Source of the DNA: Octopus vulgaris
Lineage: Eukaryota
Length of the DNA: 64,000 nt
Reading direction: 5' to 3'
Assembly (NCBI GenBank): GCA_951406725.2
Contig: OX597830.1
Span: 48,236,001-48,300,000 of the forward strand
A program made the translations under genes and the position numbers. Below are positions 24,601-27,600 of this stretch, piece after piece. The notes under the pieces are model-generated. The model saw nothing but the letters and a program-made list of their open reading frames with translations, was not told the origin of the DNA and made no database searches. Positions within the stretch are counted from its first letter, which is position 1. Each line of letters starts with the position of its first letter.

Positions 24601-27600
24601 TCCTTTATCTTCATTCTTTGTAAATTAATGTTAAACGTGAATATGAAATATGAAATTTTTTTCCAAAATAAATTTTCGTTGCAGTTCTCTTCTACATCTC
24701 ACTGACATTTGGAAATGGACGTAAGTAAATTTATATCAATATATAGACCTATATCTATGAAAATTATGAAAACCACTATTAAAAACTTTAATTTATAAGT
24801 TCAGTGAAGGAAAATATTTTCCTTCTCTAACTAAATTAGATGAAAAGAAGACTCAAGATAAATCTCGTGTTATGACGAATTCAATTCTTAACATAATTTC
24901 CACAGTTTTACGTCAGTTTGTAAGCATTTTGTTAAATAAAACAAAGTGCTGGTATTAGGGGACATTCTTTACAACAGACAACCGTTAAACATTATAGTAT
25001 ATAACTTGTGAATCATTTAAATAATAGAATTAATTAAACAACATTAAAGACTCATTCGCAGTCATTTTCATTAAACAGATTATATATCCCAAGATGCTTT
25101 GTACCTACACTATGGTAGTAACAACTCTATCACTTCTTCCTGGTAAAAATATCAATGCTGATCCTCAAACATTTAATATTCTCTATCTTTATTATTATCT
25201 ATTTTCACAATGTTTTATTTTCGTCTTCGTATTTTGGTTGTTAAATTTGCCTGGCTTTGTTACAGTTGAATATCTGAAGTATTTTATGAAAGTACCAAAC
25301 TGTGCTCTGAAAGACGGTAAAACATTGATGACACTTGACGTGGATGCCTTCCACTGTTCGAAGAGTTGTTTTGAAACTTCTGCATGTAAATCCTTCGTGA
25401 GCAGAACGATAAGTCCAAGCTGTATTTTATACGAAGAAGACTCAACAGAGAGGATGCTAATAAGTAAATATAATATCCATTTTTATCAGTTGAGAAGATC
25501 TGTGCCGACCAAGTATAGAGACGGTAAACAAATTTGAATCTTTTTGTGTTTATTTCATTCCTTGACTTGTATTCTATGTTTTTGTCCAAAGAGAGACAAT
25601 ACTGTCGGCATTTGAAAATTGACTGCGATTTCTCTGATCGATGTAGATTAGCGTGTGTTGAAAAATAATTGTTTGTAGAGTTAAAGTTCTAATAAAGTTT
25701 TGAGTGATGTGTTTAGCAGAAAATGTATTTCTACGCTGTACCTTGAAAAACAGCCGCAAGAGAGGTAAGCTCTGTTCATTGTGCAACAACATGTGCAACA
25801 ACAAATCAATTCCATCAAGAATCATCACAGAAATGTTATGATTTATACAGAAGGTGGAACATGTAGAGATTCCCATTTGGTGTATGCGGCAGAATGCACG
25901 AAACACAATCCAATTTATGTTCGTTGCACAACAGAACAATTAAACAAAATATTTAATGGACACAAATAGGATTTCAGACACAATAACAGTAGTTCGACAG
26001 AAGTTGCTGAACATTTTTCTTCAAACGGCTGCAATTTTGAAGAAGATTTGAAAGTGCATTTTCTCAGTGAATATTCTCAATCTGCTTCACTTTCACTTCT
26101 CAAAGTGCATGAGCTTACACATAGATTGGCAAACAAAATATTGGTCAGAAGTTTCCAACTGCATTCCCTTTACTTGAGTCCTTCTGGTATAGAACCGTTC
26201 TTCCTTTTGCCATCCAGGCCATTATTTGGATGTCACTATTCGGTACTTCATCCATCTGTCTCGCAGTTTTTCTGTGCAGTGTTGTCAAGTTTTTAAGCCA
26301 AAAGCCCTGAACCCCATCTGGGCCAGGTGCTTCCGGATAGGAATTTTCCTGCACTGATCTCTAATCAGCTCGGTTATTCTCAAATTCTTCTGCTGATACT
26401 CTCCATTCTCCTCTTTGAGTCTCTTTAACCACTCTGCTTCAGTTTCGTGTCGTTTCTCCTGAGACTATATGTTTGAATCGAAACTTTTGCTTTCTTCAGC
26501 ATCCGGAACGGCTTTTTCACTCTTTTCTTTCCCAGTTCCTGATAGATTCTTTTCTGATTTTGTTCGAAAAGTCTGTTTAATCTGTACTGCTCAATTCTCT
26601 GTTCATATCGTTTTAGTTTATGTGCTTTAGCTTCCAACCTATGTTTTAATTCCTCAATCATAGCATTGATTCCCTTTCTCTTCACCCTATACCTCCTCTT
26701 TAGCACAACATATTTCACTCACCGAACTTCATTTCTCTTTTTCCGTTCCAAAATATTAACATGGTTTCTGGTCTCGTTTATAGACTGCGTTATTCTCCTT
26801 CTCCACCTTCAGGTTACGTTGACATTTACCTTTGGCTTTCAAATCTATCTTCCGGGCTATAAATTTCGAGATTGCATTTATCAGCTTGTTGGTGTCCTGA
26901 TATCACCGATGATATCATTTATCTTCCTGACCCATTCATTGAGTTTCATTCTGTCTACTTTTTAAAACATTATTAATATATATTATTATTGTCATTATTA
27001 TTATAATTGTTGTTATTGCTAGTATTATTATTCATATACACTCAACAGATAGGACTGTTGGAAAAGAAAAGAATCCTAACATCGGGCTCGCACAAGTAGC
27101 TTTAGATAGTAAGAACCTTCCTAAGTATGCTAGCTTTCTTCAATGACACTTTTCTGCAGCTGCACTATACTGGGTTTTATGCCTATTTCATCTCTCCATC
27201 TGTTCAGAAGAGAAAAACCTAAGCTACACAAACACACAATATGAAAACTAATACAACAACAGGCTCAAACAAGACCCCATAACAAAACATTATCCCGCCC
27301 CCACAAAAACATGCAGCACGCACCAACCCACCAGCACAATTTTGCAATAGAAAGTTGCTTGAAAGTTTCAGATGTCGAACATTAATAGTGGTGATGACGA
27401 TGGTGACGAACGTTACCTTACCTCAGTTTATGAGAGACAGGAGTTTCGGAAGAAACTCAGATTGTAACAGCGAAAATGAAGCTGGTCCTTTAAGGGACGG
27501 CCTCTCGCTTGGCGGTGGATCAGTAAAGATGCAGACTGACCACAGCTGTCATCGTAACACAGCATCAGCAGATAATAGAGCAAAGGGGAGGAAGTGGACC

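Follow-up and report, generated by a model that had tools for sequence, protein, structure and literature searches.

An inverted duplicate of a predicted secreted triple-PAN gene in Octopus vulgaris, with probably old exon-3 variants and a hypervariable second PAN exon

Introduction

The FREPs of molluscs and the Sp185/333 proteins of sea urchins are secreted, belong to multigene families, are mosaic in structure and carry one very variable region on a conserved frame. The octopod family considered here resembles them in being, to judge from predicted gene models, likewise multigene and mosaic with a hypervariable part, but its domain type is another, the PAN domain. The apple disc of prekallikrein and factor XI gave the top Foldseek matches to our model of a family member (6i44, E 1.6e-8); in these proteins tandem apple domains bind protein partners, and the entry titles name kininogen peptides. 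Each has four apple domains and a serine protease, whereas the octopus protein has three domains with a stop after the third, and the domain arrangement differs in the model (chain rmsd ~15 Å). Taken one domain at a time, the model is matched by HGF N (3hms), with Z 12.5 and an rmsd of 2.5 over 80 residues, and by plasminogen (4a5t), with Z 12.3, but the chains of these proteins share 16–22% sequence identity with it, reach whole-chain TM-scores of at most 0.27 and carry kringle domains; the octopus protein has neither kringle nor protease and matched only PAN families. Of the solved structures, the closest by sequence came from the apicomplexan PAN-only lectins SML-2 and MIC4 (2yil, E 1e-4). 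They are small secreted binders whose ligands, according to the entry titles, are galactosides, but the match spans only ~40 residues of the cysteine core and is weak in both sequence and fold. Among lophotrochozoans the fold is shared by the leech salivary proteins LAPP (Z 7.8) and saratin (Z 5.8), which are also small and secreted but consist of a single domain and match with middling Z, in contrast to the three-domain octopus protein.

In octopods, signs of gene conversion are described for the tandem clusters of reflectin and tyrosinase genes, where, in the excerpted passages of PMC9635652, conversion is presented as keeping copies alike; the PAN locus differs in combining apparently homogenised flanks with one hypervariable exon. 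PAN domains are also mentioned in biomineral proteomes in an excerpt of PMC13425148, and a word search of the main texts of PMC7656900, PMC7693380 and PMC12607849, as far as these were accessible, returned no relevant passage. Our survey covered the open literature, and among the matches listed no paper on the triple-PAN family was found. Neither the domain nor this mode of evolution is new; the family is uncharacterised. Here we analyse a window of 64,000 nucleotides of O. vulgaris DNA in which an initial annotation had claimed diversifying selection between two copies of one PAN exon. As first stated that finding is a small-number effect, and the locus behind it is the more interesting object.

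Results and discussion

Two gene copies lie head to head

Copy B, on the forward strand, is an intact gene of six exons with an open frame of 849 nt encoding 282 residues, in the order predicted signal peptide, PAN1, PAN2, linker and PAN3. The coding part of exon 1 (21608..21638) and exon 2 (24685..24720) are followed by exon 3 with PAN domain 1 (25266..25523), exon 4 with PAN domain 2 (39073..39303), which is hypervariable and probably exchanged, exon 5, a linker that contains Cys205 (45732..45827), and exon 6 with PAN domain 3 and the stop codon (46333..46529). The signal peptide is predicted from a hydrophobic N-terminus and a helix at 2–18 in the structural model. All three domains score above the curated cut-off of PF00024 (21.4 bits), exon 3 with 25.8 bits in copy B and 29.2 in copy A, exon 4 with 39.1 and exon 6 with 23.6. 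Exon 4 of copy B is basic (14 K/R vs 4 D/E), and the full chain of this copy is without any sequon.

Copy A lies 11.9 kb away on the reverse strand, head to head with copy B. Its exon 1 coding part, which holds the ATG and the start of the predicted signal peptide (9700..9730), differs from that of copy B only at residue 8, which is R in copy A and Q in copy B; exon 2, the end of the predicted signal peptide (2850..2885), is identical in both, and exon 3 (PAN domain 1) occupies 2035..2292. The frame and splice sites of these exons are intact. The window holds exons 1–3 only, and exons 4–6 would sit to the left of position 1; since intron 3 of copy B measures 13.5 kb, exon 4 of copy A is expected off the window. 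The PAN assignment, the exon numbering and the paralogy of the two copies, all proposed earlier, proved correct.

Family transcripts are spliced. Of 24 sequencing runs listed, none of them recorded as RNA, 20 contain part of the window and none as much as half of its words; our comparison took in 4 of the 24, all as contigs, and covered 40 of 172 variant rows. The joint between exons 2 and 3 (24720>25266, GT..AG) is present in contigs of X1 and X3, the two runs guessed to be RNA, and an X3 contig matches the end of copy B exon 3 perfectly and continues with 30/30 matching bases of exon 4. The A-type letters at 25301–25302 were seen in no X1 or X3 contig; those at 25301–25303 are present in X17 and X20, both of the DNA-like runs compared. 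Depth sums in record 24 of X3 hint indirectly at A-type letters at 25465, 25466 and 25476, and being indirect they were not counted as proof that copy A is transcribed. A loose end of X1 that is spliced to exon 2 matches, over 30/30 bases, the last bases of an unrelated-looking first exon at 52672..52708 on the forward strand, which runs from an ATG to a GT donor and probably belongs to one more gene of the family or serves as an alternative start. Between 52708 and the end of the window neither exon 2 nor exon 3 was found (best 20–21/36; tblastn).

The arms of the inverted duplication diverge unevenly

Both copies are embedded in a 13-kb inverted duplication with arms at 1832..14969, broken by arm-specific insertions, and 16259..25727, whose non-coding parts differ at 271 of 7188 aligned sites (3.8% over the whole). 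This divergence is patchy, rising from zero at the centre to as much as 6.5% outward, and it is overdispersed (0/5000 permutations). The inner arm ends, 14464–14969 and 16259–16764, which flank a 1.3-kb spacer, show 0/506 differences, and this suggests recent conversion from arm to arm as in palindromes. A second quiet tract, 24948..25300 on the forward strand, lies just upstream of exon 3 and extends into it with 2 differences, and is likely a conversion tract between A and B; within it, at 25243, the letter common to A and B is absent from all compared depth of X17 and X20.

An identical centre of 506 sites might also be expected if A and B were two haplotypes of one locus misassembled as an inverted duplicate. 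We find this scarcely credible: the homology between the copies stops at 1832/25727, with both continuations present in run X17, and O. sinensis has an A-type and a B-type locus, consecutively numbered on one contig.

The exon-3 pair and selection

Exon 3 is 258 nt long in both copies, with AG/GT borders, and the counts on which the initial annotation had built were borne out. The copies differ at 14 nucleotides, which fall in 11 of 85 codons and change 10 residues (A35C, G36A, A40G, N52H, N68S, R89S, E90K, K92N, T93I and G107R, copy A first); two sequons, NCS and NRT, are present in copy A at 52 and 68, copy B has no sequon in this exon, and a cysteine at position 35 is found in B only, copy A having alanine. 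The intron differs at 3 of 360 sites upstream and at 11 of 203 downstream, again as reported. That GAT/GAC is the only silent change is right by codon but not by substitution, as GCC/TGT and GCC/GGT each hide one synonymous step; the substitutions come to Nd=11 and Sd=3.

The dN/dS signal that had been read into these counts is absent in this pair. With kappa set to 1, 2 and 3, omega comes to 1.03, 1.22 and 1.35, respectively (the kappa measured on the arms of the duplication is 2.3), and the probability of Nd of at least 11 of 14 under neutrality is 0.46–0.63. Some 75–78% of exon-3 sites are nonsynonymous, and when 14 substitutions were placed at random in 20,000 draws, at least 10 residue changes arose in 63–78% of cases, and 13–24% had no more than one silent-only codon. 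Because random substitutions mostly change residues, the replacement of residues in 10 of 11 codons is no evidence for selection. The exact 95% interval of omega runs from 0.27 to 5.75, only 14/14 nonsynonymous differences would reach significance, and the pair is too weak for selection to be either demonstrated or excluded. An omega of 0.2, as under strong purifying selection, is rejected for the exon as a whole (P=0.002–0.006).

Nor does exon 3 stand out by its overall divergence. Its divergence of 5.4% is not significantly above the 3.8% of the 7188 non-coding sites (P=0.18), at least 14 differences are found in 27% of the non-coding windows of 258 sites, and the exon (14/258) and the downstream intron (11/203) are equally divergent. 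An island of divergence kept by selection was considered and rejected, since the contrast with the upstream intron (P=0.0007) disappears against all non-coding sequence; the local exception is the quiet upstream intron.

It is the distribution of the differences within the exon that departs from chance. They are clustered, 7 of 13 gaps being 3 nt or less (P=0.0004), and none of the 10 changed sites is invariant in six other relatives, compared with 42 of the 75 unchanged ones (P=0.001). The residue changes are confined to 43 family-variable codons (defined without P0003 and P0004), with no nonsynonymous difference in the 42 invariant codons (P=0.002 by simulation; P=0.008–0.03 when clusters are taken as single events), and exon 3 is therefore unlike a drifting pseudogene. 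At the variable codons the 11 nonsynonymous differences fall in ~100 sites, an excess over the non-coding 3.8% (P=0.001–0.002, or 0.004–0.005 with each codon counted once) that is smaller against the local 5.5% (P~0.02) and has P of 0.12–0.20 against exon 3's own synonymous sites. Omega near 1 is thus the average of a constrained half and a half that has changed at ~11%, three times the non-coding rate. Such an excess would fit positive selection and would also fit older segments surviving among converted flanks. The earlier proposal of diversifying selection gains indirect support at the family-variable codons, where gene conversion would likewise account for the pattern, and no significant signal from the direct, weak test of omega.

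We consider it unlikely that positive selection after the duplication drove new changes on a binding surface of PAN1 in A and B. The excess at variable codons and the rejection of omega 0.2 speak for it, as does the placement of 6 of the 10 changes at the end of strand 1 (35 and 36) and the start of strand 5 (89–93) in the paralogue model. Strands 1 and 5 pair in PAN folds, and in that model these changes likely form one patch. Against it stand an omega that does not differ significantly from neutrality, an exon divergence matched by the downstream intron and by more than a quarter of the non-coding windows, the recurrence of 5 of the 10 differences in an O. sinensis pair, by which they are probably not new, and the fact that the most variable domain is not PAN1 but PAN2, encoded by exon 4.

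Half of the exon-3 differences recur in Octopus sinensis

The close relatives, with 1, 10 and 11 hits in separate searches, all belong to Octopus sinensis, O. vulgaris and O. bimaculoides; a more distant one is present in Argonauta hians, and there are further divergent octopus members. Annotations of this octopod triple-PAN family (LOC118766701-713, LOC106868906 and kin) go no further than uncharacterised, hypothetical or apple-domain-containing, and its members as used here are predicted gene models, of which at least one (P0009) looks chimeric. Copy B shares the predicted signal peptide, the three PAN domains and the 14-Cys skeleton of the family, to which it adds Cys35, and its exon 3 is 66–91% identical to those of 12 named relatives.

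Exon 3 of copy A is 91% identical to O. sinensis LOC118766702 and 85% to LOC118766701, and that of copy B is 91% identical to LOC118766701 and 86% to LOC118766702. At five of the ten changed sites (35, 36, 40, 52 and 68) A has the residue of LOC118766702 and B that of LOC118766701, so these five differences probably go back to ancestral variants. The two O. sinensis genes are consecutively numbered on one 59-Mb contig and, judging from the numbering, would be neighbours; we infer from these similarities that A and B correspond to LOC118766702 and LOC118766701, respectively. The correspondence is imperfect, as P33 and Y91 are common to A, B and LOC118766701 against LOC118766702, in conflict with this grouping, and A and B are more alike in exon 3 (88%) than the O. 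sinensis genes are (82%). The exon-3 tree is poorly resolved (0/11 branches starred); in the trees P0165 and P0008 stood in for the near-duplicates P0003 and P0007. The simplest reading would be an older pair of genes that conversion has partly homogenised, with half of the residue differences inherited.

These comparisons also bear on the idea that copy A is only a partial duplicate, without function and under neutral evolution. Omega near 1, the presence of exons 1–3 only within the window, a retroelement in the first intron and the lack of A-type letters at 25301–25302 in the X1 and X3 contigs would all agree with such a fate, but we judge it very improbable, because the frame and splice sites are intact, the 42 family-invariant codons have no nonsynonymous difference, an O. 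sinensis gene model shares the diagnostic residues of copy A, and a third intron as long as that of copy B would by itself carry exon 4 beyond the window.

Cys35 is found in 7 of the 9 relatives compared and Ala35 in 2, and the idea of a new cysteine in B was rejected, this residue being a subfamily state. By count Cys35 is unpaired in copy B. In some paralogues it is accompanied by a second extra cysteine (174 in P0010 and P0008, 40 in P0012). As the cysteine total is even in these paralogues and odd in B, the extra Cys35 may form an intrachain bond in some members and an interchain bond in others.

Exon 4 is hypervariable and appears to be exchanged

Among 11 genes the mean identity is 46% in PAN2 (exon 4) and 75% in PAN1 (exon 3). 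Exon-4 identity is below exon-3 identity in 54 of 55 pairs (counted without P0009 and P0013, whose exon 3 is partial), the two being uncorrelated (rho 0.04; the pairs are not independent), and at least five states occur at 26 of 76 positions in PAN2, compared with 3 of 85 in PAN1. The contrast is sharpest between copy B and LOC118766701, which are 91% identical in exon 3, 39% in exon 4, 97% in exon 5 and 77% in exon 6 (first 30 residues). Exon 4 of copy B instead groups with LOC118761179 (61% identity, support 94/92). In AU tests, for which the groupings were picked after the identities had been seen, a sister relationship of B and LOC118766701 is rejected on the exon-4 tree (p-AU 7.5e-6) and one of B and LOC118761179 on the exon-3 tree (p-AU 0.011). 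From these results exon 4 appears, as a well supported inference, to have been swapped between family members. A clade of B, LOC118766701 and LOC118766702 is not rejected on the exon-4 tree (p-AU 0.10), and very fast change in place of a swap is therefore possible; mis-joined gene models of the relatives would also mimic an exchange of exons.

The window contains a second, broken copy of exon 4 (60245..60410, forward strand), 166 nt long in place of 231, with a shifted frame and conserved flanking introns. Exon 4 differs from it at 42 of 160 aligned sites (26%) and the flanks at 27 of 390 (P=4e-9), the individual flank segments at 16/122, 6/192 and 5/76 sites (3–13%). In 39 unambiguous codons there are 22 nonsynonymous and 4 synonymous changes, with omega 1.6–2.1 (P=0.13–0.29, bootstrap 0.07), or 0.96–1.61 once 11 ambiguous codons are added. 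The nonsynonymous divergence (22/87) is above that of the flanks (P=4e-6; against the upstream flank alone P=0.03), and the synonymous divergence (4/30) is not distinguishable from it (P=0.26). An exon that appears to evolve faster than its intron is, among the sequence comparisons made here, the strongest indication that the window holds a region of accelerated evolution.

Relaxed constraint could in principle produce much of this pattern, with surfaces drifting without diversifying selection and the divergence of exon 4 reflecting old exons among homogenised introns. Neither exon has an omega significantly above 1, conversion alone can lower intron divergence and broken family copies exist. 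We hold this explanation to be quite improbable, since the synonymous sites of exon 4 are like the flanks while its nonsynonymous sites exceed them, and since positions with five or more states are so strongly concentrated in PAN2. Diversifying selection acting mainly on PAN2 is plausible on these sequence grounds but unproven.

The domains of a paralogue adopt a PAN fold in the model

The sequence folded was that of a paralogue, P0010, with 31 sequences; a first fold with 7 sequences was dropped (pLDDT 44.2). The P0010 model is confident and has three domains (pLDDT 90.7, pTM 0.81). By DSSP these show one helix packed against a sheet of five strands, and the core holds four cysteines. Single domains of the model resemble HGF N, plasminogen N and apple domains, with no solved chain matching the whole. 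The core cysteines 53, 57, 63 and 75 are invariant in the family. Cys111 and Cys205 are conserved and are candidates, in domain 2, for the third disulfide that links the two ends of an apple-subtype domain.

A proposed model of conserved frames and exchanged exons

Altogether we regard it as probable that A and B are the inverted-duplicate copies of a predicted secreted gene with three PAN domains, and that their differences in exon 3 are likely old variants, joined by a few new changes on a constrained fold, with conversion likely having homogenised parts of the flanks. We envision a scenario in which a tandem and inverted cluster generates gene copies, while conversion and unequal recombination through similar introns would make some tracts more alike and transfer others, at the largest the whole of exon 4. 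Purifying selection would hold the framework of cysteines and strands, and exposed positions, above all in PAN2, would diversify, probably because selection favours binding to a partner that itself changes.

By analogy with other PAN proteins, the product may be secreted and may bind, through PAN2, a glycan or protein of the extracellular space. Such a target could, tentatively, be foreign or microbial. A role in reproductive recognition seems doubtful, and a salivary or prey-directed one more so; in the accessible part of the supplement to the O. vulgaris salivary proteome (PMC7693380) none of five family accessions was found, a weak blank. A part in structural matrix seems less probable again. 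If PAN2 is both positively selected and ligand-binding, the family would be a candidate for diversified recognition, in defence or reproduction, in cephalopods. At its most speculative, and we think it unlikely, the locus could represent an undescribed octopod system of variable recognition, a triple-PAN cluster whose exon-4 cassette is exchanged via conserved introns and tuned by positive selection, with PAN1 and PAN3 as a constant frame on which cysteine and glycan sites are toggled.

Mobile elements and further repeats in the window

Several repeats accompany these genes. The first intron of copy A, and not that of copy B, contains the remnant of an RVT_1 retroelement at ~5893–7990, which includes an 83-bp perfect inverted repeat (7250–7332 and 7820–7902); a target-site duplication was looked for around it and not found. 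Intron 3 of copy B holds a Mariner-type transposon (31342–32614), with terminal inverted repeats alike at 38 of 40 positions and a broken transposase frame (longest 208 aa). Two decayed retroelement-like copies, 42388–44033 and 57014–59177, are 92% identical and lie near the two copies of exon 4, one after and one before. From 25728 the copy B side runs into a decayed reading frame that resembles the end of a retroelement (a 56-aa piece has no Pfam match). At the right end of the window, 63108–63765, there is a third copy of the intergenic segment of the palindrome (18611–19350 and 11104–11867), which may point to one more gene of the family, or one more duplicated block, past that end.
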